Source of the DNA: an uncultured Opitutales bacterium
Lineage (GTDB): Bacteria; Verrucomicrobiota; Verrucomicrobiia; Opitutales; CAYWEO01
Reading direction: 5' to 3'
Length of the DNA stretch: 64,000 nucleotides
Assembly (NCBI GenBank): GCA_964457855.1
Contig: CAYWEO010000002.1
Location: forward strand, 9,015-73,014
Shown one piece after another: positions 525 through 63,079 of the stretch. Within the stretch, counting starts at the first letter, position 1. Each line of letters starts with the position of its first letter. Under the pieces are notes generated by a model. The model did no database searches and was not told where the DNA came from. It saw only the letters and a list, made by a program, of their open reading frames with translations. Both the position numbers and the translations under genes were made by a program.

Positions 525-737
525 AAAAACGAATGTTAATTATTGAAAGTGCCCGGATGGATATTGGTAGCAAGATAGCTACAAAATCCACTAGCACCAA
601 ACAACTATTTGTGAAGTTTAGTGAAGAATCGTTCAGGAATCAACATCTTTTTTAAAATTTTTGGAATTTCCAAAAATCCAACGAAACCCCCCACCAAAAT
701 CAACAGCTTGTTCAGGAGAAATTTATAGTGTATTGCA

Positions 738-1030
738 CGGAGGGGGTATTTTTTGCAAAAACAACCCACTCTTGAACCCTCTCCTAAAAAACTCTCAGGA
801 CCGCATCAAAAGCTTAAGATGCAAGGTAGGCGCGCAAGGTCGAAGCTGCGGAGCTTACTAAAGGTAAGTAAGTAAGCAAGCCAAGATCCGATGCGCAACC
901 CCCCCTGGCATCTTAAGCTTTTGATGCGGTCCAGCTCGCGCGCCGATCGTTCCATCTCAAAATCAAGGCCGTCCCTTTTACCCAGTATGGGAAAAAATAC
1001 CGTTTTTCTTTGAAAGGTTCGGAAGGCGTT
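738..1030. repeat. repeat locus R1: degenerate H3 half (738-770), FB-alpha variant foldback (798-932), FB and linker fragments to about 1030
   Basis: Perfect 25-bp outer stem GGACCGCATCAAAAGCTTAAGATGC (798-822) / GCATCTTAAGCTTTTGATGCGGTCC (908-932). The core shares AGGCGCGC...GATCCGATGCGCAAC with other FB-alpha copies. The apex is altered (see findings). Confidence 0.85.
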
Positions 1031-2708: not shown

Positions 2709-3944
2709 ATGCCGCTTTTCCACTATTCAGCTATCGACAAGGACGGCGTCGAGAAACAAGGCACGCTTTGGTCCAAAAGTCACACAACGGTAACGAAAAA
2801 GCTGCTCGATCGTAAGTGTGTGATTATCAGCATCGAAACGTGTGATCGCAAGAGTACTTTTGTCGAAAAAATCAAGTCGTTCAGCGGTCTTTTCACGCAA
2901 CCGGTATCGAAAAAAATCCTGCTGTCATTTACGCAACAACTCACCATTCTCCTTCAATCCAAAATTCCCCTTCTCGATTCCCTGCAAATCACTCTGGCGC
3001 AAACGAAAAACGCCTCCCTAAAAATTGCTCTAGACTCCATTTTATCTCATCTGAAAAATGGGTCACGATTTTCCCAAGAATTGCAGGCTTTCCCGAAGAT
3101 TTTTGACGACTTTTACATCAGTATGGTCATTTGTGGGGAAAAATCCGGCCATTTGGAGAAGACGTTACCGAAAATCTGCGAACTCATCGAACGTCGTATT
3201 CGCACACGCAAAAGTATCCAGCTCGCAATGATTTACCCCAGCTTTGTCATCTCTCTGGCGATGACCGTAGCGTACCTGTTCATTCTGTACGTTGTTCCAA
3301 AATTCCAGGCCGTTTTCTTCCAAAATACGTCCATGAAAGTCCCTCCTTTCACGGCCTTTATCTTCGACTCAAGCCGCTGGCTGCAGGAGCATTCTCTCTC
3401 AGTACTGGTGACTGTCATCATCGTCCTGAGCGTCATTGCCCTTTTCATCCTAAAATCCTCCAATCAGGCACTTTTGAGCAACACGCTCATCAAACTGCCC
3501 TACATCGGACGCTTTTTCCAGCTGTTCACGCTCAACATTTTTTGCTACAACTTGAGCCTCTTCCTCAACAACGGAATTCCCATTCTCACTGCCCTGGAAC
3601 TCATTCAAAAGGCCATCAAATTCAAAAATTACCAGAATGCCCTCATGGCCGTTCGCGCAACCCTCAGCAACGGAATCGCCCTTTCCGATGCCCTCTCCAT
3701 CCACCACACCCTATTTCCGCCCATCACCATCCATCTCATCAAAATCGGCGAGGAAACCGGAAAATTGAACGGCATTCTCCATAAACTAGCCGAACAGTTC
3801 GAGCTCGAGTACCAACAAATGATCAAGCAATTCCTCACCCTCCTCGAACCCGCCCTCATCATCGCCCTAGCTCTCTTCATCGGCATCATGATTCTGTCGC
3901 TGTTTATACCCCTGTCGCAACTCCTGCAAAATTCCTTCGTTTAG
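2709..3944 (+). CDS. type II secretion system F / type IV pilus PilC-family inner-membrane platform protein
   Basis: 411 aa. The N-terminus is typical (MPLFHYSAIDKDGVEKQGTL), there are two T2SS-F-like repeats (FTQQLTILLQSKIPLLDSLQI ... LSLFLNNGIPILTALELI), and there are three TM segments. Confidence 0.85.
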   Translation: MPLFHYSAIDKDGVEKQGTLWSKSHTTVTKKLLDRKCVIISIETCDRKSTFVEKIKSFSGLFTQPVSKKILLSFTQQLTILLQSKIPLLDSLQITLAQTKNASLKIALDSILSHLKNGSRFSQELQAFPKIFDDFYISMVICGEKSGHLEKTLPKICELIERRIRTRKSIQLAMIYPSFVISLAMTVAYLFILYVVPKFQAVFFQNTSMKVPPFTAFIFDSSRWLQEHSLSVLVTVIIVLSVIALFILKSSNQALLSNTLIKLPYIGRFFQLFTLNIFCYNLSLFLNNGIPILTALELIQKAIKFKNYQNALMAVRATLSNGIALSDALSIHHTLFPPITIHLIKIGEETGKLNGILHKLAEQFELEYQQMIKQFLTLLEPALIIALALFIGIMILSLFIPLSQLLQNSFV

Positions 3945-3952
3945 GAATGCCC

Positions 3953-4202
3953 CGCTTTTGAGCGGCGGGTTCTTTGCGCTCGGCATCAATGCCATCACGT
4001 ACGTTAGTACGCTCAGGCATCTTGTCCTCGCGCGCTCGTCATCTTAAGCTAGATAGTTTCTAACGTTTTATAGAACTTTTCATGGAAAGTCGCATCGGGA
4101 GGCATTTTTTGGCACGTAGTGCCAAAAAATGCCTCCCGAATAAAAATTTTTAGGGGGAAGGGTTCGGGAACCCCCCTTTTTTACAAAAAAGGGGGGTTCC
4201 CG
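3953..4202. repeat. repeat locus R2: FB-alpha in reverse orientation (3953-4050), degenerate H1, H2 (4095-4139), H3 variant (4165-4202)
   Basis: CATCACGTACGTTAGTACGCTCAG apex. H2 has a 21-bp stem TCGGGAGGCATTTTTTGGCAC/GTGCCAAAAAATGCCTCCCGA. H3 is CGGGAACCCCCCTTTTTT/AAAAAAGGGGGGTTCCCG. Confidence 0.9.
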
Positions 4203-4271
4203 GGAAAAACACCCCACGTTGCACAAAACCTTGCATTTTCGGATCATTAGCCTTAGGTTTTGTTATTCATT

Positions 4272-5684: not shown

Positions 5685-6772
5685 CCGCGCAGTCTTTTTA
5701 CGAGCAAGATTCGGATGCCCTTTGGAAAAACCTACAAGTTGTTGCTAGCCAAGCGAATATTCCGCTGGAGGCGTACAGGATTCGGCAGATAAAAGATTGG
5801 GCTTACTGTCGACGAATAGCGTCATGGGATTTGGCGGCAAATCTGCCTAAACCCTTGCGCCAGTTGATGATAGGGCGGTATTATTTACGTTCTGCGGAGT
5901 GTGTTTTGTCGGAAAAATCGTCAGATTCGACGGAAAAATTCCTCTTGAAACTGCGTGATGGTGCCCTCATCGAATCGGTGGTGATTTGCGATGGCGAGAG
6001 GCGGACATTATGTGTGTCGTCGCAGGTGGGTTGCGCGTACGGATGTCGCTTTTGCGCTTCTGGATTAAGGGGTTACGAGAGAAATTTGAGCACAGATGAA
6101 ATTTTGTCTCAAGTGCTGGTTGTTGAAGATGTCCTTGTCACAAGGGGACTTGCGAAGCAAAGCGATCACCTGTTGCTAGACAACATTGTGTACATGGGTA
6201 TGGGCGAACCTTTGGCGAATCGCGAGAATGTTGAGGCGTCGATTAAGATTTTGAACGCGCGGTTTCATTTTGGAGCTCGGCGCATAACGGTTTCGACGTC
6301 CGGTGTGGTTGACGAAATGGACGTTTTGGCGAAAAATCCCCTGCAGTTTCGGCTTGCCGTGAGTTTGCACGCGACGAGAAATGACGTGCGCGACGCCATC
6401 ATGCCCGTAAACAAAAAATATCCGTTGGAGAAGCTGTTGCAGGCAATTGAACGGTTTTCGCAGACCCACCACGGAATGGTGACGCTCGAATATATTTTGA
6501 TCAAGGGGCTCAACGATTCTCTCACGGATGCCCGCGAGTTGAGCGCAATTGCGAAAAAATTGCACGCACACGTGAATTTAATTCCCTACAACCCAATCGA
6601 AGAATTCGCTTGGGAACGGCCTTCCGTCAGAGAATGTACCGCTTTTTTTGATGTTTTGCAAAATTGCGGCATATCCTCAACCTTGCGCAGAGAAAAAGGT
6701 TGCGGAATCAACGCCGCTTGTGGACAATTACGTCTAAGGGGGATGGTCGTTAAGGCGCCGGCGGAGAAGTAG
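5681..6772 (+). CDS. rlmN: 23S rRNA/tRNA adenine-C2 methyltransferase, radical SAM
   Basis: CxxxCxxC radical SAM motif (GCAYGCRFCASG). Length and the C-terminal CGQL motif (INAACGQLR) fit. It has a 4-nt overlap with cysS. Confidence 0.9.
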   Translation: MTAQSFYEQDSDALWKNLQVVASQANIPLEAYRIRQIKDWAYCRRIASWDLAANLPKPLRQLMIGRYYLRSAECVLSEKSSDSTEKFLLKLRDGALIESVVICDGERRTLCVSSQVGCAYGCRFCASGLRGYERNLSTDEILSQVLVVEDVLVTRGLAKQSDHLLLDNIVYMGMGEPLANRENVEASIKILNARFHFGARRITVSTSGVVDEMDVLAKNPLQFRLAVSLHATRNDVRDAIMPVNKKYPLEKLLQAIERFSQTHHGMVTLEYILIKGLNDSLTDARELSAIAKKLHAHVNLIPYNPIEEFAWERPSVRECTAFFDVLQNCGISSTLRREKGCGINAACGQLRLRGMVVKAPAEK

Positions 6773-6780
6773 GAGAATAA

Positions 6781-6951
6781 TTCGGAAAACTTTCTTTTCA
6801 GAAGAAAAGAAAAGTTTTCCGAACCTTTCAAAGAAAAGTCGCATCGGAAGGCATTTTTATGGCACGGAGTGCCAAAAAATGCCTTCCGAATAAGAGTTTT
6901 TTCAGGGGAGGTCCGGAGGGGGTTGTTTTTGCAAAAAATACCCCCTCCGGA
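6781..6951 (+). repeat. repeat locus R3: complete H1 (6781-6823), H2 (6844-6889), H3 (6912-6951) array
   Basis: Three consecutive palindromes with the conserved linkers CCTTTCAAAGAAAAGTCGCA and ATAAGAGTTTTTTCAGGGGAGG. The array fills the rlmN-MBL gap. Confidence 0.95.
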
Positions 6952-6979
6952 AAACTCCAACCATCTACATACAATCACT

Positions 6980-7729
6980 ATGAATTTTAAATTTCAGATC
7001 CTTGGCAGCAGCAGTTCGGGAAATTGTGCCCTTTTGGAATCGTCGGAGGGGTGTTTTTTGATCGACGCCGGCTTTAGCGCGAAACGCATCGGGGAGTTGT
7101 TGGGGAATGTCGGGAAAGAAATGGGCGATATCGTGGGGATTTTTTTGACACACGAACACAGCGATCATGCGGAGGGCTTGCGAGGAATTTCGCGAAAATG
7201 GGATATCCCGTGTTTTGCAAATGCACCTACGGCAAAGGCTGTCCAGTCGCGTTTAGGCAAAGAGGCGAATTGGAAGATTTTTGAGACTGGAAAGTGCTTT
7301 CAGCACAAAGACTTACAAGTCAAAACCTTCGCGATTCCGCACGATGCTTACGAGCCTGTGGGGTTTGTCATCAAGATCGGCAACGAAAGTCTCGCTTGGG
7401 CTACAGATCTCGGCTACGTTTCCCCGATGGTTGCTGAACACGTTTGCGCAGTGGATGTTCTCGTTATCGAAGCAAATCACGATATCGCTCTGTTGCAACA
7501 AGATACCAAGCGCCCCTGGAGCGTCAAACAACGCGTTCTTGGACGCCATGGACACTTGTCCAACGACGCAACATTCGCCTTCATCGAGAAAACCCCACAC
7601 GCCTCCTGGAAAAAGATCTACCTCGCCCACCTCAGCCAAGACTGCAACGACGTGCGCATTGTTGACAAACTTTTCGAGCCCATACGGCAGCGAGGTTTAG
7701 ACGTCAAAGTGGTCGATCCGAAGGGGTAG
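6980..7729 (+). CDS. MBL-fold metallo-hydrolase
   Basis: HxHxDH motif (LTHEHSDHAEG). Start moved to ATG 6980 (MNFKFQILGSSSSGNC) because 6869-6979 is H2/H3 repeat sequence. Confidence 0.85.
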   Translation: MNFKFQILGSSSSGNCALLESSEGCFLIDAGFSAKRIGELLGNVGKEMGDIVGIFLTHEHSDHAEGLRGISRKWDIPCFANAPTAKAVQSRLGKEANWKIFETGKCFQHKDLQVKTFAIPHDAYEPVGFVIKIGNESLAWATDLGYVSPMVAEHVCAVDVLVIEANHDIALLQQDTKRPWSVKQRVLGRHGHLSNDATFAFIEKTPHASWKKIYLAHLSQDCNDVRIVDKLFEPIRQRGLDVKVVDPKG

Positions 7730-7743
7730 GGTGGGGGGTATTT

Positions 7744-7782
7744 CCGGGAAACCTTCTTTTCTTCTGCAAAGAAGGTTCTCCG
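7744..7782. repeat. repeat locus R4: single hybrid H3/H1-like hairpin between convergent genes, possibly a bidirectional terminator
   Basis: CCGGGAAACCTTCTTT-loop-AAAGAAGGTTCTCCGG, sitting between the MBL stop (7729) and the secretin stop (7791). Confidence 0.7.
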
Positions 7783-7790
7783 GTTTTCTT

Positions 7791-9689
7791 TTACCTCTCC
7801 GGCGTCTCGGTTAGGATATTTCCTTTCGTAGACAATAGGCTCGCCGTCACAAAGATGAGCAAGTTGCGTTTTTGGGAGGTTTCGCCTTTGGATTGGAAGA
7901 GGCGGCCGAGGAGGGGGAGGTTGCCGAGGAGAGGGACTTTATCCTGGACTTCCTTGACTTCTTCGCGCGTGAGTCCACCCATAACGACGGTGGCGTGGTT
8001 TTGGATGATGACTTCCGTATGGATGCGTCGCACGGAGAAAATTGGTTGGAAGTAGCCGGAGGGGGAGCGCACGGTTGTGGAGCCGGAAATGGCGATATTG
8101 GAGCCGCCGTATTCGACGAATCCCTCGAATTCTGTGACGGAAGGCTCGAGTTTGAGGCAAATTTGGTTATCTTGTTGGACGGTTGGGGTAACGGACATTT
8201 GGACGCCGACGTTACGGACAGCGAAATCTGAGGGAGTTCCTGCCGTGATCGTGACACCAGCTGCGCCGGCTGCCCCTCCACCACCCGTTGCGTAACCTGT
8301 TCCTACGTTGGATCTTGCATGCGAATAAGCTTGCGGATAGCGCATTTCTTGTGCGACAACGATTTCCGCCTTCTTGCCCGATAAAACCGTTATGCGTGGG
8401 GCGCTCATCAAGTCAGATCCGCTTTGCTGTTCAAGGGCTTGCATGACGAAATTCATCTGATAGCCGTTGAGGACCCCGAGCATATTGGCGATGGGGGCTG
8501 ATTGCGAGCCCGTATTGATGCTATTGGGAAAATTTGGAGAGTTGTTCGGAATATCGATGTTTGTGGTTCCTGACAAAATAGTTCCGTTGCCGCTCGTGTA
8601 GGTTTGTTTTGCAAAAGCGTTGAGAGTGCGCAAGTTACTGACGGAATCGTTGCCAGTCATGACTTGCGCCTGGTTGTTTTTTCCCATGTTCCATTTAAAC
8701 CCAATTTCTTCGAGGGCGCCCTGTTGGACTTCGAGGAATTTGGCTTCGATTTGAACTTGTTTGATTTCCAGGTAGCGCGAAAGGATATTTTTGATGCGTT
8801 GAAGGTTCTTTTGTGTTTGCGTGACAATGAGTTGAGTGCCATCGAAGGCGAGGGATGATTTTGGAATATCGAAATCAACGCCTGCCCGCGAGAGGAAATT
8901 TTTCAGCGACTTTTCTTCTTGGGAGAGAAGATGATTGGGTGCGTTTTGGGGATTGAGATCAGCCTCTAACTTTTGTGGAACTTCGCCGATGAGTTGGATT
9001 ACGGTGGCCCGCGAAATCGGGAAGGTTTTGGTGTTAAGGATGGCCTTAATGTCATCTTCGCGCTTGATAATAACGGCATCTTTTTCGACTTCGATTTGGA
9101 AATTGATTGATTGGGCGATGTAGTTTAAAATCGTTAATAGAGAAAGGTTTTTGAGCGAAAGCGTGACGTTTGGATTGACGGATTTTGGGTCCATCAGAAT
9201 GAGGTTGATGGGGTTATCTGGAGACGGATTGTATTTTTCGGCCAGATTTGCTAAAAGTGCAACCACTTCTTTGATCGGAACATCTTTCAACTGAATGGAG
9301 GGAAGGACGATCGTCTTAAGTTGTTGGAGAAGAGGGACTTTTGTGGAAGCTTTTTGGGTAATGGGGAGCGTGAGGACTTCTACTTCGGGCTTGATCCATG
9401 CTTGATCCACTTGTTTGAGAAAGTCTGTACGGGTGGTTTGGCGCTGCAGCGAATAGGGGGGCATGCGCCATTGTTGGACTTTGAGGAGGAGTTCCTTGGC
9501 TTGTTCGTGGTTGGGGTATGCCTTTATAAAATCCGTAAGTTCTTTCTGCGCAAGGTCAAATTGGGCGGCAAAGTAGTGGATTTTGATCGCAGAAAATTGC
9601 TTATCTTCTTCAGGCGTGTGCGGAGGATCTGCATAAACGCTGACGGAAGGCAGGAAAAAAAGGCAAATGATGATCAACGAGTTGCGCAT
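7791..9689 (-). CDS. secretin (GspD/PilQ family outer-membrane channel)
   Basis: 632 aa with a signal peptide. The C-terminal secretin domain has VPLLGNLPLLGRLF and a Gly/Ala-rich gate region. Confidence 0.9.
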   Translation of the reverse strand: MRNSLIIICLFFLPSVSVYADPPHTPEEDKQFSAIKIHYFAAQFDLAQKELTDFIKAYPNHEQAKELLLKVQQWRMPPYSLQRQTTRTDFLKQVDQAWIKPEVEVLTLPITQKASTKVPLLQQLKTIVLPSIQLKDVPIKEVVALLANLAEKYNPSPDNPINLILMDPKSVNPNVTLSLKNLSLLTILNYIAQSINFQIEVEKDAVIIKREDDIKAILNTKTFPISRATVIQLIGEVPQKLEADLNPQNAPNHLLSQEEKSLKNFLSRAGVDFDIPKSSLAFDGTQLIVTQTQKNLQRIKNILSRYLEIKQVQIEAKFLEVQQGALEEIGFKWNMGKNNQAQVMTGNDSVSNLRTLNAFAKQTYTSGNGTILSGTTNIDIPNNSPNFPNSINTGSQSAPIANMLGVLNGYQMNFVMQALEQQSGSDLMSAPRITVLSGKKAEIVVAQEMRYPQAYSHARSNVGTGYATGGGGAAGAAGVTITAGTPSDFAVRNVGVQMSVTPTVQQDNQICLKLEPSVTEFEGFVEYGGSNIAISGSTTVRSPSGYFQPIFSVRRIHTEVIIQNHATVVMGGLTREEVKEVQDKVPLLGNLPLLGRLFQSKGETSQKRNLLIFVTASLLSTKGNILTETPER

Positions 9690-12774: not shown

Positions 12775-13084
12775 TTCCGGAGGGGGGCTTTTTAGGTTAA
12801 TTCCGGAGAACCAATTTTTTGCAAAAAAATGGTTCTCCGGGCCTCTCCAAAAAAAACTCTTAATTCGGAAGGCATTTTTTGGCACATAGTGCCAAAAAAT
12901 GCCTTCCGATACCGCTTTTCTTGTGAAAATTAGGAAAACGTCGGAACCTCTGGCGTGGCTTCTATTTCGAGATGACGGGCAGGCGCGCGCGGACGAAATC
13001 CCTGAGCGTACTAACACGTGATGGGATTGAGATCCGATGCGTAACGAACCCGCCGCTCGAAATAGAGGCTACGCCAGAGGTTCC
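12775..13084 (-). repeat. repeat locus R5: reverse-order array with H3 half plus H3 (12803-12840), H2 (12865-12909), degenerate H1, then FB-alpha (12943-13084) overlapping the xseB 3' end
   Basis: FB arms GGAACCTCTGGCGTGGCTTCTATTTCGAG (12943-12971) / CTCGAAATAGAGGCTACGCCAGAGGTTCC (13056-13084). The right arm contains the xseB stop (13069-13071) and its last 4 codons. Confidence 0.9.
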
Positions 13085-14684: not shown

Positions 14685-14745
14685 TTCGGAAACTTTTCTT
14701 TTCTGCGGGAAAAGAAAAGTTTCCGAACCTTCAAAAGAAAAGCGA
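14685..14745 (+). repeat. repeat locus R6: H1 (14685-14727) plus linker, truncated
   Basis: TTCGGAAACTTTTCTTTTC-TGCGG-GAAAAGAAAAGTTTCCGAA followed by CCTTCAAAAGAAAAGCGAT. Confidence 0.9.
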
Positions 14746-14772
14746 TATTTTTTGCTTATGCCGTCCAAAAAA

Positions 14773-17520: not shown

Positions 17521-17689
17521 TCAGGGAAACTTTCTTTTCGGAGAAAAGAAAGTTTCCCTGACCCTTCAAAGAAAAGCATATCGAAGCGCATTTTTGTGGC
17601 ACTACGTGCCTAAAAAATGCGCTTCGAATGAAGAGTTTTTTTGGAAAGGGCCCGGGAAAACCAATTTTTGCAAAAAATGGTTTTCCCGG
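17521..17689 (+). repeat. repeat locus R7: complete H1 (17521-17561), H2 (17581-17627), H3 (17652-17689) array
   Basis: All three palindromes lie between the DUF502 start and the tRNA-Arg(CCG) 3' end. The stems carry compensated variants (TCAGGGAAAC.../...GTTTCCCTGA). Confidence 0.95.
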
Positions 17690-17705
17690 AATATCAACAA
17701 AAACC

Positions 17706-23548: not shown

Positions 23549-23914
23549 GCGGCGTAGCGATTTGTAATCGCTAGGGTTCGTTAAGACAGAGCCGATTTTG
23601 AGCGGCGAGTTCGTTGCGCATCGGATCTCGATCTCATCACGTACGTTAGTACGCTCAGAGATCTCGACCTCGTGCGCCTGCTCGTCGTCTCAAAATCGGC
23701 TCTGTCTGAAAAATTCCAACCCCGTCACGTACGTTAGTACGCTCGGGGGTTAAAATTTTTCCGTAGCCGTCCCTATCATCTCGAACTTACTACGCCGCCC
23801 CACCTTAAGCGAAGATAAATTCCCATTTTTTTGCTCAGCATGAGCAAAAAATAACGCTTTTCTTTTGAAGGTTCGGAAACTTCTTCTTTTCTCGGGAAAA
23901 GAAAAGTTTCCGAA
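23548..23914. repeat. repeat locus R8: FB-beta (23548-23799) with a complete FB-alpha nested in one arm (23585-23706), then an H2 variant (about 23824-23852) and H1 (23872-23914)
   Basis: Two apex motifs (CATCACGTACGTTAGTACGCTCAG and GTCACGTACGTTAGTACGCTCG). Inner perfect 18-bp arms GACAGAGCCGATTTTGAG/CTCAAAATCGGCTCTGTC. Outer arms GGCGGCGTAG/CTACGCCGCC. Confidence 0.9.
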
Positions 23915-26892: not shown

Positions 26893-26910
26893 AAATTGTG
26901 GTTTGTAAAT

Positions 26911-27037
26911 TTGGAGAACCATTTTTTTGCAAAAAATAGGTTCTCCAAACCTCTCCCCCAAAAACTCTTATTCGGAAGGCATTTCTTTTGAAGGTTCGGA
27001 AACTATTTCTTTTCTTCGGAAAAGAAAAGTTTCCGAA
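26911..27037 (-). repeat. repeat locus R9: reverse-order H3 (26911-26948), half H2 (26971-26983), H1 (26995-27037)
   Basis: TTGGAGAACCATTTTTTTGCAAAAAATAGGTTCTCCAA. H2 is cut to one arm. H1 is TTCGGAAACTATTTCTTTTC/GAAAAGAAAAGTTTCCGAA. Confidence 0.9.
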
Positions 27038-28911: not shown

Positions 28912-29194
28912 TTCGGAAACTTTTCTTTTCAAGAGAAAAGAAATAGTTTCCGAACCTTCAAAAGAAAAGCTATATCGGAAGGCATTTTAGTTCGGCCTGT
29001 AAGGCCGAACTAAAATGCCTTCCGAATACGAAAAGAAAAGAAGAGCAAAATCGGTTTGGCGCCGTCGATTTCGAGATGATAGGCAGGCGCACGAGATCAA
29101 GATGCCTGAGCGTACTAACACGTACGTGATGGCATTGAGATCGATGTGCAACGAACCTAGCGCTCGAAATCGCTACGGCGCCAAACCGATTTTT
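28912..29194 (+). repeat. repeat locus R10: H1 (28912-28954), H2 apex variant (28975-29025), FB-alpha (29047-29194)
   Basis: FB arms AAAATCGGTTTGGCGCCGTCGATTTCGAG / CTCGAAATCGCTACGGCGCCAAACCGATTTT. The right arm ends inside the hsp20 stop codon (29193-29195). Confidence 0.9.
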
Positions 29195-32388: not shown

Positions 32389-32734
32389 TTTCGGGAACCT
32401 TTCTGTTCACGAGAACAGAAAAGGTTCCCGAACCCTCCAAAGAAAAGCGGTATCGGAAGGCATTTTTATCGCCAAAAACCGCTAAGAAAACATCGATTTT
32501 GAGGGGTCGTTTTGTAAAAAATAACTTTGGCCCACCACTTTGAGGGAGACAGTAGTCAGTTTGCCCAGAAACCGAACAGATTCCTGGCACAAACCGCAAA
32601 GAAGGCACCGATTTTGAGATGATAGAGACGGCTTAGAAAAAATTTTACTCCTGAGCGTACTAACGTACGTGATGGGGTAAAATTTTTTCTAAACGGAACT
32701 CTAGCGCTCAAAAGCGACACCTTCTTTGCGGTTT

Positions 32735-33937: not shown

Positions 33938-34072
33938 GGGAGAAATTAGTTATCTATTTATTTCGAGAGAAATACTTGACATCCTCTTGGTTGTTATGTC
34001 AACGTCTCCCTGAAGGTCAAGAACCATTTAGAATTTGAGTACTACGTCCTTAACTTTAACAAAAAAAATAGT

Positions 34073-36106
34073 ATGAAAACCAATACATTCTTTAAACACA
34101 TTGCAACGAGTTCCCTCGCTTTGATGATCGGCCTGCAGGCACCATTCGCCTTAGGAATGCTCGATAAAAAAGATAACCCAAGCGCGCCTCAGCAATATCA
34201 AAATACGCAAGACCCTCAACATCAATTGCTTAGAAATCGCTTGCTGAACGAACTCCGTGTATTAAGCGCTGGTCTCTCCGAGCATCTCCGCAACATAAAA
34301 GCAGATAACAGTGATAACAGTGACGACAGTGACGACGAAATATCGATCAATGGGGAAAATTTCAGCATCGAAAGCAAAGAAGGTTTAGATGTCGAAAAAC
34401 AAAAACAAGCACTCAACATTCCAAAAAGAAAGTTCCAAGCACAAGATTTTCGACGTCTCGAATTCCTGCTCGGTAAAGAAGATAGTCTTCAAATTTTCGC
34501 ATTAATGATTCAGAATGGCCTTGATATAAAAGATATTATGAAGGACATTCAAGACGCAAAAGATAAGCACAATCAAACATACAGCAAAAAAAATGCCTTT
34601 TTAGATCTCAAAATCAAGTTTGCCGATGACTATTACAAAGGTGATGGTTCTTTGAAAAATGCTGAGGTTTCTGAACCAGAAAAGATTCAGGATTTCAGCT
34701 ATAAAGCAAATTATGATTATTTACATGAAGGCCATCCCAGGCGTGAAGTTCACCAATTGATTAAGAATCTACATCCGAAACAAATAAAAATATTCAAAAC
34801 GTCTGACTTTTTAGGAGGTTTGAGCTGGTTCGATTTTAAAGAGATGAAGAATGATAAAGGTTACCGTTACTTAGAGTGGGGTACTGGTCGTGATGTCGAG
34901 ATTCGCATAGGTAAAGGTGTTGAGGAATTTGTCAATAAGCGGTCGCCTAGCAAAGGATTGGTTTTTGTTTCTCACGACGGCTATACAAAATTTGTTTTCA
35001 ATAGACGTTATGGAATCGTAAACGATGAAGAAAAAACAAGCTACACCAAAGATTTTTTGGATACATGTTTCAACAGTGAAGAAAAAAACAAACGATTAAC
35101 GGAGATACTCCAACAATGTCATCAATTACGTAAACAATCAGCACCTGTGTTCTCGGAGCAGACATGCAATCGCTTTTTTGATGCTAGATTTGACCTTATG
35201 GTTCATCTCGAAGAGAATAAAGGGCGTTCAAAATTTATTAAAAAATGTTATCAAGATAGTCATCTTGAGGTCAATGAAAGTAAAGGTAGACTAGAGTTGC
35301 TAAACGATAAAAATGAACTCATCAGCGTTGTGATTCCATTTGAGGACTTAGTGGAATGCTTCAAGTCAGTTAAAAAAATTAGTTTTTCGTACGATAGTGA
35401 TCAAATCAACCAAATATTATTCGATAAATTAAGTGCAAAAAATGTGTCACATTTCCAAATATCTAAGGTTGATATTCCAAAACTTTTTAAATGGATTAAA
35501 GAGACAGGGAGTGACACATTTAACAACCGCAAGGAATTCAGTCTCACGTGCTTGCCATACTTTAGTATCAGCAGTCAGCCTAATTATCTCGAATACGTTA
35601 ATACTGGTGTCAGCGTTCCAGAAGATCCTAACGGAGTTAAGCCTTTAATCAATTTCTTAAAAGATCACCCTACAATCGAACGTTTAAATTTGGCCGGTTT
35701 GTGGTTCGACGTGCCCACCATTCTGGAGATTTGCAAAGTCCTACCAAATCTCAAAATACTCGTTATCGGAGTGGGTGGTTATGATGTACCTGGGAATTTC
35801 AAATTTGACAATTTTATACCCTATGGCAGTAGTATGATTACGCTGTATAAATTTTCCGATACATTGAAGATCGAAGCTGAATTGCCAAAAAATGCTAAAT
35901 TGATTGTAGTGTCTGTGTTGCCAACAATCAATAATAACGAAATAAAAATCAAGCCTTATGTTGGAAAGGAACTCAATACTGATTTATTCGATAAAGAGCA
36001 TATGATCATCAAGGGTACAAAGATTGTTTTTGAGGGTAAAGTTAAGTACAACAACGACTTCCAAAACAAGAAAATGGAGAAAGAAATCGAAATTAAAAAA
36101 GAGTAG
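34073..36106 (+). CDS. large secreted hypothetical protein with an acidic DNSD repeat and a C-terminal LRR-like segment
   Basis: 677 aa with signal peptide (SSLALMIGLQAPFALG) and DNSDNSDDSDDE. The C-terminus reads HPTIERLNLAGLWFDVPTILEICKVLPNLKILVIG. It is Lys/Asn-rich and AT-rich by eye. Confidence 0.65.
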   Translation: MKTNTFFKHIATSSLALMIGLQAPFALGMLDKKDNPSAPQQYQNTQDPQHQLLRNRLLNELRVLSAGLSEHLRNIKADNSDNSDDSDDEISINGENFSIESKEGLDVEKQKQALNIPKRKFQAQDFRRLEFLLGKEDSLQIFALMIQNGLDIKDIMKDIQDAKDKHNQTYSKKNAFLDLKIKFADDYYKGDGSLKNAEVSEPEKIQDFSYKANYDYLHEGHPRREVHQLIKNLHPKQIKIFKTSDFLGGLSWFDFKEMKNDKGYRYLEWGTGRDVEIRIGKGVEEFVNKRSPSKGLVFVSHDGYTKFVFNRRYGIVNDEEKTSYTKDFLDTCFNSEEKNKRLTEILQQCHQLRKQSAPVFSEQTCNRFFDARFDLMVHLEENKGRSKFIKKCYQDSHLEVNESKGRLELLNDKNELISVVIPFEDLVECFKSVKKISFSYDSDQINQILFDKLSAKNVSHFQISKVDIPKLFKWIKETGSDTFNNRKEFSLTCLPYFSISSQPNYLEYVNTGVSVPEDPNGVKPLINFLKDHPTIERLNLAGLWFDVPTILEICKVLPNLKILVIGVGGYDVPGNFKFDNFIPYGSSMITLYKFSDTLKIEAELPKNAKLIVVSVLPTINNNEIKIKPYVGKELNTDLFDKEHMIIKGTKIVFEGKVKYNNDFQNKKMEKEIEIKKE

Positions 36107-36160
36107 TCAAACTAAAGGCCCTAGACCATTAGAGTTAAAAATTAACCGACCAATTTTAGG

Positions 36161-36197
36161 ATAGAGCCAATAACCCCGAAGAGGTTATTGGCTCTAT
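36161..36197 (+). terminator. hairpin downstream of the 677-aa gene (terminator candidate, no U-tract)
   Basis: ATAGAGCCAATAACC-CCGAAGA-GGTTATTGGCTCTAT, a 15-bp perfect stem 55 nt after the stop at 36106. Confidence 0.4.
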
Positions 36198-36253
36198 GAT
36201 TAAACCTAAAATTCGCACTCTTTTAAGTACAAAGTAAAGGTCGGTGCGCTCAT

Positions 36254-36336
36254 GCCGTTGGACTTCGCGAGCTGACTTGTTTGGACAAGCTCCAAAAGCA
36301 TTCGTTCCCCGCCGCACAACGGCCTGTTTTTATTTT
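36254..36336 (+). ncRNA. GC-rich structured segment ending in a T-run (candidate small RNA or intrinsic terminator)
   Basis: GCCGTTG (36254-36260) pairs with CAACGGC (36317-36323), followed by CTGTTTTTATTTT. There is an internal hairpin GAGC-TGA-CTTGT-TTGG-ACAAG-CTC. The segment is locally much more GC-rich than the surrounding islet. Confidence 0.25.
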
Positions 36337-36404
36337 CGAGAAAAACATTTGACCTTCCTCAGTTTCAAATGTGAACTACTCAGTCTTCAAAAGGAAAAGT
36401 TTTC

Positions 36405-45527: not shown

Positions 45528-45812
45528 TCGGAAAACTTTCTTTTCAGAAGAAAAGAAGAGTTTTCCGAACCTTTCAAAGAAAAGTCATATCGGAAGGCAT
45601 TTTAGTTCGGCCTTACAGGCCAAACTAAAATGCCTTCCGAACTAAGAGTTTGTTTTGGCCAAAATTTTTGCGCCTTATGGACGTAGGGAACCGCACGATT
45701 TTGAGATGACGAGCAGGCGCGCGAGGACGAGATGCCTGAGCGTACTAACGTACGTGATGGCATCGAGATCCGATGCGCAACGAACTCGCCGCTCAAAATC
45801 GTGCGTTCCCTA
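45528..45812 (+). repeat. repeat locus R13: H1 (45528-45569), H2 apex variant (45590-45640), degenerate H3, FB-alpha (45684-45812) overlapping the recombinase 3' end
   Basis: FB arms TAGGGAACCGCACGATTTTGAG (45684-45705) / CTCAAAATCGTGCGTTCCCTA (45792-45812). The right arm contains the stop (45793-45795) and the last 5-6 codons. Confidence 0.9.
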
Positions 45813-46704
45813 GTGGATGGCAATCGCGGTATGCCTGCACGAGGTTTTTCGTGGAGAGGGAGGTATAGATTTGGGTAGTGGCGATGTTGGCATGGCCGAG
45901 CATTTCCTGAATGGCGCGGAGATCGGCTCCGTTGGTGAGGAGGTGGGTGGCGAAGGAATGTCGGAGCATGTGGGGTTTGAGGTTTTTTTGAATGCCGAGT
46001 TGTTGGGCGTAGTGTTTGATGAGGGCCCAAACCGTCTTTCTGGAAATGGCTCTTCCTCGTTGAGTCAGAAAGACTTTCGCATTTGTCCAACGTTTGACAA
46101 ATTGCGGGCGCGCAACGGTTAAGTAGTTTTTAAGTGCCGTGATGGCCTGGGAACCGATGGGAATGATCCGCTCTTTGCTGCCCTTTCCCATGACGAGAAC
46201 GTATTGGGGATCGAAGTGAACGTGCGTGAGGTCGAGTTCGCAGAGTTCCGTTACGCGCAACCCGCTGCTGTACATGAGTTCGAAGATCGCGCGGTCCCGG
46301 ATACCCTCGTTTGAGTGAAGATTCGGGGCGTTTAACAAGCGCGCAATGTCTTCTACGGAAACGACTTCTGGCAAACGGCGTACCGTCTTTGGATTGCGAA
46401 ATTCTGCCAGAAAACTCTTCTCTAAAACGTTCTCTTGGATTAAGTAACGAATGAGGGTCCGTGCGGCGGATAATTTTCTTGAAATCGTTGTGGAGCAGCA
46501 ACTTGCGTCCATCAACTGCGACATCCATAGCGAAATGTCATTCGGTGATACGTCTTCCCAGCGAGACTTTTTTTGCTGCAATAGAAAAGCGACCAACTGC
46601 TCCAAATCCTTGCCGTAGCTTTGAAGTGTGTTCTTGGACAAACCACGCTCAAGGCCGAGAAACGCCAGAAACGCGCCCACAGACTTCTGTAAAATCGATT
46701 GCAT
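45793..46704 (-). CDS. XerC/XerD-family tyrosine recombinase
   Basis: C-terminal catalytic region HMLRHSFATHLLTNGADLRAIQEMLGHANIATTQIYT. Start trimmed to ATG 46704 (MQSILQKSVGAFLAFL) because 46722-46820 is repeat sequence. Confidence 0.9.
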   Translation of the reverse strand: MQSILQKSVGAFLAFLGLERGLSKNTLQSYGKDLEQLVAFLLQQKKSRWEDVSPNDISLWMSQLMDASCCSTTISRKLSAARTLIRYLIQENVLEKSFLAEFRNPKTVRRLPEVVSVEDIARLLNAPNLHSNEGIRDRAIFELMYSSGLRVTELCELDLTHVHFDPQYVLVMGKGSKERIIPIGSQAITALKNYLTVARPQFVKRWTNAKVFLTQRGRAISRKTVWALIKHYAQQLGIQKNLKPHMLRHSFATHLLTNGADLRAIQEMLGHANIATTQIYTSLSTKNLVQAYRDCHPLGNARF

Positions 46705-46721: not shown

Positions 46722-46820
46722 CCGGGAAACCCCCTTTTTTATAAAAAAGGGGGTTTCCCGATACCGCTTTTCTTTTGAAGGTTCGGAAACTTTTTCTGTT
46801 CTGGAACAGAAAAGTTTCCG
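46722..46820 (-). repeat. repeat locus R14: H3 variant (46722-46760), linker, H1 (46782-46820), with H2 missing
   Basis: CCGGGAAACCCCCTTTTTTATAAAAAAGGGGGTTTCCCG, then ATACCGCTTTTCTTTTGAAGG, then TTCGGAAACTTTTTCTGTTC/GAACAGAAAAGTTTCCG. Confidence 0.9.
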
Positions 46821-46840
46821 CATATACCCCCACCAGCCTA

Positions 46841-47638: not shown

Positions 47639-47680
47639 AACTTGGTAGAAAAACACCGTTTTTGGAGAGTTGCAACAATA

Positions 47681-47831
47681 TTCGGGAACCTTCAAAGAAA
47701 AGCATATCGAAAGGCATTTTTGTGGCACTAAGCGCCACAAAAATGCCTTTCTAACGAGAGTTTTTAAGGGGGAGGTCCATAGAATCAATTTTATATACGA
47801 CGGCATCGATTTTGAGCGGCGAGTTCGCTGC
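47681..47831 (+). repeat. repeat locus R15: half H1, H2 variant (47707-47752), half H3, truncated FB-alpha end (47802-47831) abutting the parB stop
   Basis: TCGAAAGGCATTTTTGTGGC...GCCACAAAAATGCCTTTC, and GGCATCGATTTTGAGCGGCGAGTTCGCTGC, which matches the FB-alpha terminus. Confidence 0.8.
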
Positions 47832-49506: not shown

Positions 49507-49746
49507 TTTCTGGAACCTTTGTTTTCACGAGAAAACAAAATGTTCATGAACCCTCCAAAGAAAAGCGGTATTTTTACACAAAAGCGCAAAAAAGGGCTCC
49601 AAAAAAACTTATCCAAGAGACACCGTAGTAAGTTCGAGATGATAGGGACGGCTACGGGAAAATTTTAACCCTCGAGAGTACTGTAACGTGACGGGGTTGG
49701 AATTTTCCTGTAACGGCACCCTAGCGCTCGAAATCGCTACGGTGTC
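49507..49746 (+). repeat. repeat locus R16: degenerate H1 (49507-49550), linker, FB-beta (49619-49746) overlapping the glgB stop
   Basis: Arms GACACCGTAG (49619-49628) / CTACGGTGTC (49737-49746). The apex variant is TCGAGAGTACTGTAACGTGACGG. Confidence 0.85.
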
Positions 49747-51647: not shown

Positions 51648-51695
51648 ACTTTAAAGTATGTTATGTCTTTTGTTAATTTGCAATCATTTAATGCC

Positions 51696-52016
51696 TCGGA
51701 AACTTTTCTGTTCCAGAACAGAAAAAGTTTCCGAACCTTCAAAAGAAAAGCGATATCGGAAGGCATTTTTTGGCACTACGTGCCAAAAAATGCCTTCCGA
51801 ACAAAGATTTTTTTGGAAAGGGTCCAGGGAAACCTATTTTTTGCAAAAAATGGTTTTTTCGGCACAAAACATCTAAAAACAACGAACCAAAGGACGCCGT
51901 AGTAAGTTCGAGATGACGAGCAGGCGCGCGAGGATTTTAACCCCTGAGCGTATTGTAATACGTGATGGGGTTGAAATTTGAGCGCAACGAACTCGCCGCT
52001 CGAAATCGCTACGGCG
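51696..52016 (+). repeat. repeat locus R17: the full four-module array H1 (51696-51735), H2 (51756-51800), H3 (51824-51862), FB alpha/beta chimera (51905-52016)
   Basis: All modules lie in canonical order between the divergent glgB and dnaG starts. The FB ends 8 nt before the dnaG ATG. Confidence 0.95.
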
Positions 52017-55727: not shown

Positions 55728-55835
55728 TTCGGAAAACTTTCTTTTCGAAGAAAAGAAACGTTTTCCGGACCTTTCAAAGAAAAGCGTATCGGAAGGCAAT
55801 TTTATGGCATTACATGCCGCAAAAATGCCTCCCGA
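55728..55835 (+). repeat. repeat locus R18: H1 (55728-55769), H2 variant (55789-55835)
   Basis: TTCGGAAAACTTTCTTTTC/GAAAAGAAACGTTTTCCGGA, and TCGGAAGGCAATTTTATGGCAT/ATGCCGCAAAAATGCCTCCCGA. Confidence 0.9.
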
Positions 55836-56554: not shown

Positions 56555-56842
56555 ACTTCCAGAGTTTCCGACCCTTCCAAAGAAAAGCCCTCCGAATGTT
56601 GCAAATTTGCATCTTAAGCGATGGCCCACTCCCCACAAGGTGGCTTAGCAAGTTTGAGATGATAGAAACGGCTACAAAAAAAATTCAATCCTAAGCCATC
56701 GAACCACACTCGACAGAATACCGCCGATTTTAAGATGACGAGCAGGCGCGCGAGGGGGAAATGCCCGAGCGTACTAACGTACGTGATGGCATCGAGATCC
56801 GATGCGCAACGAACTAGCCGCTTTAAAATCGGCGGTATTCTG
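56555..56842 (+). repeat. repeat locus R19: H1/H2 fragments, half FB-beta, FB-alpha (56714-56842) abutting the tRNA-Val(GAC) 3' end
   Basis: Arms CAGAATACCGCCGATTTTAAG / CTTTAAAATCGGCGGTATTCTG. The right arm overlaps the encoded CCA by 2 nt. Confidence 0.85.
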
Positions 56843-57146: not shown

Positions 57147-57478
57147 CGTGGCCAGGAAGGTGTCAATTTTGAACGCTAGAGTTCCGTTACAAAAAAATTT
57201 CAACCCATCACGTACGTTAAGTACGCTCAGGGATTGAAATTTTTTTGTAGCCGTCTCTATCATCTCGAACTTGCTACGCCACATCGCGAGGAGTGGGATT
57301 TTCTTCAGAGGATTCCAAAAATTGACGCCTTCCTGGCCACGATGGGTCGAAGCAAATTTGTAAAATTCCAAAATTCGAAAGGCATTTTTGGCCTGTAGGG
57401 CCAAAAATGCCTTTCGATACCGCTTTTCTTTTGAAGGTTCGGAAACTTCTTCTGTTCTGGAACAGAAAAGTTTCCGAA
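57147..57478 (-). repeat. repeat locus R20: long hairpin (57147-57341) enclosing FB-beta in reverse orientation, then H2 (57375-57417) and H1 (57438-57478)
   Basis: 24-nt arms CGTGGCCAGGAAGGTGTCAATTTT (57147-57170) / AAAATTGACGCCTTCCTGGCCACG (57318-57341) with one mismatch. The hairpin starts 5 nt after tRNA-Val(CAC). Confidence 0.9.
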
Positions 57479-58605: not shown

Positions 58606-58776
58606 TTCGGAAACTTTTCTTTTCCAGAGAAAAGAAATAGTTTCCGAACCTTCAAAAGAAAAGCGTATCGAAAGGCATTTTTCTGGCATGTAATGCCAGA
58701 AAAATGCCTTTCGAATTAAGAGTTTTTAAGGGGGAGGCCCGGAGGGGGTGCTTTTTGCAAAAAACACCCCCTCCGG
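58606..58776 (+). repeat. repeat locus R21: complete H1 (58606-58648), H2 (58668-58714), H3 (58739-58776) array
   Basis: The array starts 4 nt after the mnmA stop. The H3 variant is CCGGAGGGGGTGCTTTTTGCAAAAAACACCCCCTCCGG. Confidence 0.95.
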
Positions 58777-58808
58777 AAAATCTTTTACCCATACTGCGCC
58801 TTTTCGCT

Positions 58809-58839
58809 CAACTCCTGTGACATTTTGTCACAGGAGTTG
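58809..58839. promoter_or_regulatory. perfect 14-bp inverted repeat CAACTCCTGTGACA-TTT-TGTCACAGGAGTTG, candidate activator or operator site upstream of dnaK
   Basis: Arms at 58809-58822 and 58826-58839, centred about 63 bp upstream of the -24 element. It is not part of the H/FB repeat families. Confidence 0.45.
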
Positions 58840-58885
58840 GGCGAAAATGAGTTGACGGTGGGGGATTTTGTTGTCTTATTGGATG

Positions 58886-62896: not shown

Positions 62897-62911
62897 AACA
62901 CGCCGTAGCCA

Positions 62912-63079
62912 CGGGAAAACCATTTTTTGCAAAAATAGGTTTTCCCGCACCCTTTCCAAAAAAACTCTTCATTCGGAAGGCATTTTTGAGGCACGTAGTG
63001 CCACAAAAATGCCTTCCGATACGCTTTTCTTTGAAGGGTCCGGGAAACTTTCTTTTCTTCGAAAAGAAAGTTTCCCGGA
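62912..63079 (-). repeat. repeat locus R22: complete reverse-order array H3 (62912-62947), H2 (62973-63019), H1 (63039-63079)
   Basis: It fills the convergent groEL/acpS gap almost exactly, from stop 62896 to stop 63081. Confidence 0.95.

Follow-up and report, generated by a model that had tools for sequence, protein, structure and literature searches.

REP sequences lie mostly downstream of genes and between convergent open reading frames (ORFs), and the genome of Opitutus terrae is among those rich in them (PMC3733652). A modular structure is described for BOX elements, which, like RUP and SPRITE repeats, favour sites downstream of coding sequences (PMC3049150). For one REP cluster of Escherichia coli, a double role as partial transcription terminator and mRNA stabiliser has been described (bioRxiv 10.64898/2026.03.23.713779). 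Here, we examine a family of intergenic repeats in 64 kb of DNA (the window) from an uncultured Opitutales bacterium, namely positions 9,015 to 73,014 of contig CAYWEO010000002.1 in GenBank assembly GCA_964457855.1. A full copy of the repeat is an array of three hairpins, H1, H2 and H3, joined by two linkers, L1 and L2; we refer to this three-hairpin family as the arrays, and to a second family found beside it as FB, the name given in a first-pass annotation of the same DNA. On balance, we consider it likely that the arrays are lineage-specific mosaic intergenic palindromic repeats, a functional and evolutionary analogue of REP/BIME and of the streptococcal BOX elements.

Structure, copies and mosaicism of the arrays

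Direct reading of positions 6700-7050, which hold one complete array (module boundaries in Table 1), and of all other listed loci gives the constant order H1-L1-H2-L2-H3 with both linkers conserved. Sequence reading, a profile and covariance models agree on the hairpins, linkers and order, all of which the first-pass annotation had placed correctly. Arrays are built from a hairpin unit of about 40-50 nucleotides (nt), conserved at its base (TCGGAA…TTCCGA) and variable at its apex; individual hairpins measure 38-51 nt. The base is common to all three types (H1 TTCGGAAAC…, H2 TCGGAAGGC…, H3 TCCGGGAAA…), and each covariance model also detects the other two types at 15-38 bits. Because of this shared base, we read H1, H2 and H3 as diverged copies of one ancestral hairpin unit.

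The linkers are A/T-rich, and L2 is approximately the reverse complement of L1. Since most of the array length is matched by the array profile on the opposite strand as well, the full array is a 170-nt pseudo-palindrome centred on H2, presenting three adjacent hairpins on either strand; its ends are inverted-repeat-like, the bases of H1 and H3 being similar. In the minimum-energy fold, 186 nt around the array at 6781..6951 form three consecutive hairpins, with L1 paired to L2 and thereby lengthening H2; the RNA fold has an energy of -95.5 kcal/mol (z=-12.9) and the DNA fold one of -60.8 kcal/mol (z=-12.1). Within each hairpin type, the stem is imperfect at a constant position: a single bulged base in the 3' arm of H1, a mismatch or bulge where the T-run of H2 meets GGCAC, and mismatched A·A or T·T in H3. 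Owing to its bulge, H1 is strand-asymmetric, scoring 10-20 bits more in the forward direction than in reverse and always in the same sense relative to L1. The flanks, with a slash at each hairpin boundary, are …ATAA/TTCGG and CCGAA/CCTTC for H1, …GCGTA/TCGG and CCGA/ATAAGAG for H2, and …GGGTC/CGGG and CCGG/AAAA for H3.

A profile built from five full arrays detects 21 loci in the window at E<1e-3, covering 2,692 nt in total: the five complete arrays and about 16 partial ones. Covariance models, scored at every position on both strands, find 15 H1, 13 H2 and 11 H3 hairpins together with one hybrid hairpin (7743-7784), and no score in coding DNA is better than E ~0.4. All 40 hairpins at the 21 loci are non-coding, a placement with a chance probability of ~2e-18. 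Moreover, a 24-base H2 signature has 15 matches in the window versus none in 100 shuffles, the same families (D1-D11) emerge from an unbiased search for repeats, and the stems from a search for inverted repeats. Arrays inside genes were considered and rejected: the seven ORFs that overlap arrays are over-extended, their start-codon calls being distorted by the repeats, and their Pfam domains begin well downstream. The earlier list of loci needs few changes. Five of its six complete arrays stand, four on the plus strand and one on the minus strand, while the sixth (12803-12942) is incomplete, its H1 remnant being fused to an FB copy; all 14 of its partial arrays exist, and two loci had been overlooked (736-796 with 993-1029, and 56561-56598). 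Arrays make up 2.7 kb (4.2%) of the window and FB copies 1.5 kb (2.3%), together 6.5%, which is below the roughly 5 kb and about 8 percent first estimated.

The same genes are present on Logan contigs assembled from other sequencing runs (SRR21799894-98, SRR12261224/27), which are otherwise identical to the window and break off inside arrays or FB copies, at window positions 62941, 62963, 63051, 4015, 47699 and 49655. Because these independent assemblies stop inside repeats beside the same genes, the repeats are genuine and not an assembly artefact. Furthermore, since the repeats sit at gene boundaries, short-read assemblies of the organism shatter there.

Stem pairing is strongly conserved between copies. 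The two arms are paired in 97.5% of cells in H1, 97.0% in H2 and 88.9% in H3, and both sides have changed at 7 of 19 pairs in H1 (23 cells), 7 of 24 in H2 and 10 of 18 in H3 (37 cells). None of 500 shuffles reached the covariation score of any hairpin type, and sliding the partner column by one lowers pairing to 47-73%. The compensated variation reported in the first-pass annotation is thus real. The non-Watson-Crick stem cells, counted on the array-forward strand, comprise 16 G·T and 12 A·C; given this lack of asymmetry, an RNA-strand signature is rejected and neither strand stands out as a dedicated functional RNA, which is compatible with stems maintained as DNA or with both strands being used.

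Module subtypes are found in all combinations. H1 subtypes track L1 subtypes (a and b with CCTTCAAAAG, c with CCTTTCAAAG, d with CCCTTCAAAG, e with CCCTCCAAAG) and join freely with the variants of the H2 apex and the subtypes of H3. The complex AGTTCGGCC apex, for instance, accompanies both H1 type a and H1 type c, each of which is also found with other apexes, all four combinations being present. Identical H3 cores, at 17652-17689 and 39386-39423, have different H2 copies as neighbours; similarly, the H1 and L1 stretches of 46759-46820 and 57415-57476 match at 98% identity over 62 nt, and the sequence beyond differs. H2 is present once or not at all in an array, never in tandem, and other elements are found in its slot: an H3-type hairpin at 46722-46761, small unrelated hairpins at 23825-23852 and just after 14748, and a foldback of 190 nt at 797-992. 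Additionally, the loci at 4.0, 12.9 and 39.2 kb have one junction in common, in which the 3' half of an FB copy is followed by an H1 remnant and L1-H2-L2-H3. These subtype combinations, slot swaps and the shared FB junction indicate that modules recombine and that the two repeat families nest. Such reshuffling is what has been described for BIME and BOX-type repeats.

Genomic placement, host and distribution

The arrays are concentrated at gene 3' ends. Once gene starts are moved out of the repeats and tRNAs are treated as genes, the window contains 46 positive gaps; of their combined 8,104 nt, arrays make up 32% and FB copies 17%. Arrays are present in 20 of the 46 gaps, and in 20 of the 30 that span at least 100 nt; among these longer gaps, they occupy 6/6 convergent, 13/17 tandem and 1/7 divergent ones (Fisher's test, p=0.005 for convergent versus divergent gaps and p=0.002 for gaps containing a 3' end versus divergent gaps). 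A further convergent gap of 61 nt holds the lone hairpin 7743-7784, and no arrays were found in three gaps of a low-GC island or in the short operon junctions of the window. Judged by this census, the first-pass wording that the repeat is tiled into almost every intergenic gap and has colonised essentially all intergenic DNA goes too far; most gaps holding a gene 3' end carry arrays.

Array orientation is independent of the direction of the flanking genes, as had been observed before: in tandem gaps, 6 arrays are co-oriented and 7 anti-oriented with transcription. Across the window, 14 arrays lie on the plus and 7 on the minus strand (p=0.19). Arrays start 0-10 nt from the stops of rseP, acpS, mnmA, the penicillin-binding-protein gene, the radical-SAM gene and lptF/G, and several finish 8-30 nt from the start of the next gene, these start calls being provisional. 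The close fits to the groEL/acpS, rseP and mnmA stops pointed out in the first-pass annotation are correct.

Pfam scans of about 50 ORFs describe a housekeeping region, with cysS, rseP, dxr, dnaJ-grpE, hsp20, nusB, ftsY, lptF/G, mraZ-rsmH, a penicillin-binding-protein gene, a XerC/D-like recombinase gene, parB, glgB, dnaG, rpoD, mnmA, dnaK-groES-groEL and acpS. In agreement with the earlier reading, these scans reveal no transposase in the window, only a XerC/D-type recombinase. The best GroEL matches are proteins of Opitutaceae, Opitutales and Puniceicoccales metagenome-assembled genomes (MAGs) at 77-80% identity, with nothing above 80%, so the host is an Opitutae-like verrucomicrobium without close sequenced relatives. 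P0002 was rejected as the nearest GroEL match, being a chimeric MAG protein at 75% identity.

Searches beyond the window suggest that the array family is confined to this lineage. At gathering thresholds, Rfam yields no family except 6 tRNAs, and its permissive E-value mode gives only generic hairpin matches far below threshold; a known RNA family is rejected on this result. An exact H2 pattern has no match in 185,579 GTDB species genomes or in viral contigs, exact-pattern scans being of a kind that would overlook diverged versions, and its single match in a JGI metagenome lies inside a xylulokinase gene and is due to chance. Likewise, blastn of the full array gives no match in plasmids or phages, and neither nhmmer nor the three covariance models detect anything in 1.26 Mb around groEL from 80 relatives. 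Neither repeat family is present in the loci of the three nearest relatives (1.3 Mb of relatives' DNA examined in total).

FB, the second family, folds back on itself into a rod of 110-135 nt (RNA -74 kcal/mol, z ~ -9) and has two subtypes, a conserved core (…TTCGAGATGA…GGCGCGCGAGG…CTGAGCGTACTAACGTACGTGATGG…GCGCAACGAAC…GCTCGAAA…) and, at its tip, a conserved mini-hairpin, CGTAC-nnnn-GTACG. It adjoins three-hairpin arrays in about 12 gaps and directly abuts four of the six tRNA genes, those for tRNA-Met, tRNA-Leu and both tRNA-Val (gene ends 32735, 39050, 56841 and 57143). In the outermost 10-20 bp of the FB stems, the sequence varies between copies and complementarity within each copy is kept (examples in Table 1); it looks as if FB inserts into pre-existing hairpins or extends its own foldback.

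Table 1. Coordinates of arrays and FB copies in the window and of terminators after groEL in related genomes
Feature	Coordinates	Strand	Modules	Position and remarks
Complete array	6781..6951	+	H1 6781-6823, L1, H2 6844-6889, L2, H3 6912-6951	8 nt past radical-SAM gene stop; 29 nt short of next start
Complete array	17521..17690	+	H1 17521-17561, H2 17581-17627, H3 17651-17690	From tRNA-Arg 3' end to DUF502 gene start; anti-oriented to transcription
Complete array	51695..51863	+	H1 51695-51735, H2 51756-51800, H3 51823-51863	glgB/dnaG gap, sole array in a divergent gap; FB copy after it
Complete array	58606..58777	+	H1 58606-58648, H2 58668-58714, H3 58738-58777	3 nt past mnmA stop; upstream of dnaK operator region
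Complete array	62910..63079	-	H3 62910-62949, H2 62973-63019, H1 63039-63079	Fills convergent groEL/acpS gap; Logan contigs end inside (62941, 62963, 63051)
Partial array	12802..12942	-	H3 12802-12841, L2, H2 12865-12909, L1, H1 3'-arm remnant	Remnant fused to FB 12947-13080
Partial array	4062..4203	+	H1 remnant, L1 variant, H2 4095-4139, L2, H3 4164-4203 (GGGAACCCCCC subtype)	FB 3942-4055 before it
Partial array	39282..39424	+	H1 remnant, L1 variant, H2 39315-39360, L2, H3 39385-39424	
Split array	736..1029	-	L2 and H3 736-796, L1 remnant 993-1029	FB-like foldback of ~190 nt fills H2 slot
Solitary hairpin	7743..7784	.	Base H3-like, apex H1-like	61-nt convergent gap; 30.5 bits with H1 model
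Partial array	14685..14748	+	H1 14685-14727, L1	
Partial array	23824..23914	-	H1 23872-23914, L1, unrelated small hairpin 23825-23852 in H2 slot	H1 abuts rseP stop codon
Partial array	26910..27037	-	H1 26995-27037, L1, H2 3' tip only, L2, H3 26910-26949	dnaJ-dxr gap
Partial array	28912..29025	+	H1 28912-28954, L1, H2 28975-29025 (AGTTCGGCC apex)	FB 29051-29183 next
Partial array	32390..32475	+	H1 32390-32432 (GGGAACC subtype), L1, H2 5' half	
Partial array	45527..45657	+	H1 45527-45569, L1, H2 45590-45640 (AGTTCGGCC apex), L2 remnant	4 nt past penicillin-binding-protein gene stop
Partial array	46722..46822	-	H1 46782-46822, L1, H3-type hairpin 46722-46761 in H2 slot	
Partial array	47678..47786	+	H1 collapsed, L1, H2 47707-47753, L2	
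Partial array	49508..49571	+	H1 decayed (three positions unpaired), L1	
Partial array	55728..55835	+	H1 55728-55769, L1, H2 55789-55835	46 nt past rpoD stop
Partial array	56561..56598	+	L1 fragment, terminal piece of H1 3' arm	
Partial array	57375..57478	-	H1 57438-57478, L1, H2 57375-57417 (GGCC apex)	Between tRNA-Val with FB copy and mnmA
FB copy	3942-4055			
FB copy	12947-13080			Outer stem 12947-12960/13066-13080
FB copy	23582-23703			
FB copy	23713-23800			
FB copy	29051-29183			Outer stem 29057-29067/29172-29183
FB copy	32600-32723			
FB copy	39064-39190			
FB copy	39214-39259			
FB copy	45682-45813			Outer stem 45684-45705/45792-45812
FB copy	49633-49743			
FB copy	51907-52015			
FB copy	56640-56700			
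FB copy	56715-56842			Outer stem 56717-56730/56828-56841
FB copy	57153-57300			
FB-like	797-992			
Terminator after groEL, relatives L089/L090	11689-11712			
Terminator after groEL, relative L091	11739-11772			
Terminator after groEL, relative L010	11666-11693			

The G+C content of the window is ~47% apart from the island at 34000-38950 (37-39%), which lies beside tRNA-Leu and holds three ORFs without Pfam match (34073-36106, 36405-37421 and 37572-38867). The island was probably acquired horizontally. Neither repeat family occurs in its intergenic gaps, which fits the repeats having spread through older DNA only. One island gap, after ORF 34073-36106, contains a unique perfect 15-bp hairpin (36161-36197; ATAGAGCCAATAACC-n7-GGTTATTGGCTCTAT) that has no T-run and is unrelated to both families.

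Another unique palindrome, with a 22-bp stem, lies just upstream of dnaK (58801-58847; …CTCCTGTGACA-TTT-TGTCACAGGAG…). It bears a TGTGACA-n-TGTCACA motif and was rejected as a member of the array family, a similar motif being present upstream of dnaK in relatives L023, L032, L089 and L091. A heat-shock operator is the probable identity of this palindrome; the start listed for dnaK, a TTG at 58825, falls inside it and is probably over-extended.

Comparison with described repeats and likely origin

The arrays share much with REP/BIME repeats (PMC3733652, PMC3116915, PMC3479197). Both consist of short imperfect palindromes at high copy number that are strictly extragenic, lie mostly downstream of genes and between convergent genes, form mosaics of several hairpin subtypes with conserved linkers, and keep their stems by paired changes. 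REPs are moreover thought to act as mRNA 3'-end stabilisers and partial terminators, and Opitutus terrae, a member of the Opitutae, is known to be rich in them. There are also differences. Neither a GTAG nor a CGTC unpaired tag is found in the flanks of H1, H2 or H3, the array hairpins measure 38-51 nt whereas REPs measure 20-40 nt, three hairpin types follow a fixed order instead of forming dimers of alternating orientation, and there is no sequence similarity to any described REP. A CGTAG motif near the 5' end of FB recalls the GTAG tag of REPs; it is confined to FB and absent from the arrays. In REPIN/RAYT systems (PMC3116915, PMC3479197), the cognate gene encodes a RAYT, an IS200/IS605-like Y1 HUH protein, and is flanked by repeats, and the window contains none. 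With the enterobacterial BIME units Y, Z1 and Z2, no homology emerged from Rfam, the GTDB exact-pattern scan or blastn against plasmids and phages, enterobacterial chromosomes not having been compared by similarity search.

The BOX elements of Streptococcus (boxA-boxB(n)-boxC; PMC3049150) resemble the arrays in being composites of modules in fixed order that are often lost or varied, in their predicted stem-loops, in their enrichment downstream of coding sequences, in lying nested in or adjacent to other repeats, and in their restriction to a lineage. Unlike in BOX, whose middle module B is tandem-variable, the middle module of the arrays is single or missing, and every array module is a near-perfect palindrome related to the other two. 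Terminal inverted repeats and target-site duplications have been reported for BOX, while the arrays show no duplication, and the two families have no sequence similarity. SPRITE repeats have the dispersed, oversized-terminator look of the arrays (a long stem and a T-rich tract), occur near gene 3' ends and have been proposed to be co-opted as terminators. A SPRITE is, however, a single hairpin directly followed by a U-rich tract, whereas the arrays have a T-run 7-9 nt off, an A-run upstream and two further hairpins.

Miniature inverted-repeat transposable elements (MITEs) with long inverted repeats, such as Correia of Neisseria, ERIC/IRU and RUP, are likewise non-coding, pseudo-palindromic, intergenic and 100-170 nt long, with RNA hairpins able to affect the expression of neighbouring genes. 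The arrays differ from them in having no target-site duplication (e.g. TA) and no identifiable parent insertion sequence, and in being three autonomous hairpins and not terminal repeats around a core. In the flanks of 15 H1 ends and 11 H3 ends, a preference for A/T is apparent (…TA[TA]A preceding H1 and AAAA following H3), with no target duplication. Palindrome elements derived from IS200/IS605 have subterminal imperfect hairpins at both ends, make no target duplication, insert beside a fixed tetra- or pentanucleotide and are biased in strand relative to replication. With these, the bulged hairpins at both array ends and the missing duplication fit; the left flank shows only the loose TA[TA]A, and the orientation bias is the non-significant 14 to 7 given above. 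The family works like a BIME or BOX mosaic and belongs to none of these named families. The first-pass view of a structure-dependent, non-autonomous repeat, REP/BIME- or MITE-like in spirit, agrees with the high copy number, non-coding location, kept stems, lack of coding capacity and mosaic structure of the arrays and with the absence of a transposase nearby; what it does not find in them is the REP tag, GTAG or CGTC.

Read as a mosaic repeat of this kind, the family is probably selfish in origin, and we infer that it is mobile. Copies would have multiplied within the genome by hairpin-dependent copying, for which the candidates are an enzyme acting on single-stranded DNA (HUH/RAYT-type) encoded elsewhere, or template switching with gene conversion. 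Modules would be continually reshuffled via recombination between the shared linkers and hairpin bases, and stem pairing would be upheld by selection on the hairpin or by arm-to-arm correction. Copies may survive where harm is small, after stops and in convergent gaps, and be purged from divergent promoter regions. When transcribed, arrays would form very stable RNA hairpins, most likely serving as 3'-end barriers through which mRNA would be stabilised and transcription from either side partly terminated or insulated.

Several observations weigh against this account. No target-site duplication, empty site or polymorphism was found, the other samples represented by Logan contigs being the identical strain; empty sites or polymorphism as proof of mobility were rejected, these contigs matching the window and breaking inside the repeats. 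No cognate enzyme, and no RAYT-type gene in particular, is present among the ~50 ORFs scanned in the window, and the hairpins lack the GTAG/CGTC tag of classical REPs and are longer. Additionally, the copies are kin by descent and the structure was derived from the same sequences, so the covariation counts overstate the number of independent events. Finally, the 3'-end bias fits selection for terminator function equally well as purifying selection against promoter disruption.

Transcript ends and alternative explanations

This last point leads to the most serious alternative, that the arrays are primarily transcription terminators or insulators which have replaced canonical ones, their likeness being kept by selection and gene conversion and not by selfish spread. 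The linkers and middle hairpin have a suggestive layout. Of the 13 H2 copies, 12 are preceded by an A-run that stops 5-6 nt short of the hairpin, and 9 are followed, at a distance of 7-9 nt, by a run of 5-8 T, giving L1-H2-L2 the A-run/hairpin/T-run arrangement of a putative bidirectional terminator, with an offset; palindromic hairpins would serve both orientations. The offset matters: a canonical intrinsic terminator, with its U-tract within 0-2 nt of the stem, is rejected, since a simple intrinsic-terminator scan passes only 2 of the 13 H2 copies, and H1 and H3 have no T-tract. Nor are three hairpins what termination needs, which they exceed.

Comparison with relatives also favours a terminator role. 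In 60 kb of the window scanned, terminator-like sites show no excess over expectation (24 vs 26±5, 23 vs 24.7±6 and 17 vs 27.4±5 expected), whereas such sites are in excess in relative L089 (33 vs 20.7±4.4). Textbook terminators, GC-rich hairpins followed by 7-8 T, stand 60-130 nt after groEL at four relatives' loci in three genomes (Table 1), while here the groEL-acpS gap of 184 nt is filled by an array alone and has no canonical terminator. This comparison is suggestive of terminator replacement and, with one slot compared, falls short of proof.

Placement cuts both ways. An array in every convergent gap and in only one of seven divergent gaps is what terminators would predict, the one divergent array being an exception. 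Some arrays, however, end 8-30 nt from co-directional starts (DUF502, dxr, xerC-like and rodZ-like genes, all provisional), which argues against strong termination at those sites; with no room for a promoter before these starts, read-through must occur there. Truncated, decayed and module-swapped copies and the nesting with FB, furthermore, look like turnover of selfish DNA. The first-pass suggestion of a bidirectional terminator or insulator thus gains from the 3'-end concentration, the A-run/hairpin/T-run layout and the post-groEL slot, and loses from the few H2 copies that pass the terminator rule and from the arrays so close to the next start. As the primary role of the arrays, with selfish spread not the driver, we consider it rather unlikely.

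A second alternative gives the arrays a role at the level of DNA, as binding or recombination sites. Their folded or cruciform hairpins would be bound by a nucleoid-associated protein, by gyrase or IHF in the manner of BIMEs, or by a tyrosine recombinase in the manner of integron attC sites, and the arrays would organise supercoiling domains or recombination. The imperfection fixed in mid-stem in each hairpin type recalls protein-recognised hairpins, which are often similar, although descent from a few master copies explains it as well. A/T-tract linkers could bend DNA, and the mismatch types are strand-symmetric. The XerC/D-type recombinase gene at 45793-46704 is flanked by arrays, but its product resembles an ordinary chromosomal XerC/D, no cassette-like units lie between arrays, and no protein partner has been identified. 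Moreover, a role in chromosome organisation predicts neither the 3'-end bias nor the avoidance of divergent gaps, and we regard this explanation as very improbable. That each array is, or contains, a small-RNA gene or cis-regulatory RNA with sequence-specific function is extremely improbable: for all its very stable predicted structure with covariation, the family has ~21 copies in 64 kb, in both orientations and beside functionally unrelated housekeeping genes, with modules readily lost or exchanged, neither strand favouring G·T over A·C, no Rfam family match and no conserved promoter-plus-terminator architecture around the arrays.

As mosaic intergenic repeats, the arrays embody a concept that is not new, REP/BIME, BOX and SPRITE already covering such repeats. 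They are nonetheless a clean example of it, being modular, built of three hairpins visibly diverged from one unit, and with their reshuffling legible in the sequence. By analogy with the described families, they probably act as transcript-end hairpins. For annotation, they mean that about half of the intergenic DNA of this region consists of two repeat families. Since an array occupies the post-groEL slot where relatives have a canonical terminator, a testable idea follows, that of a spreading repeat replacing the terminators of its lineage. In its full form, the selfish three-hairpin repeat, together with FB, would have replaced the canonical terminators genome-wide, and the symmetric A-run/hairpin/T-run with its two guard hairpins would end transcripts and insulate convergent genes from each other. 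We hold this to be unlikely; if true, it would amount to the wholesale, repeat-driven replacement of a basic gene-expression signal, with canonical terminators retained in relatives and lost here.

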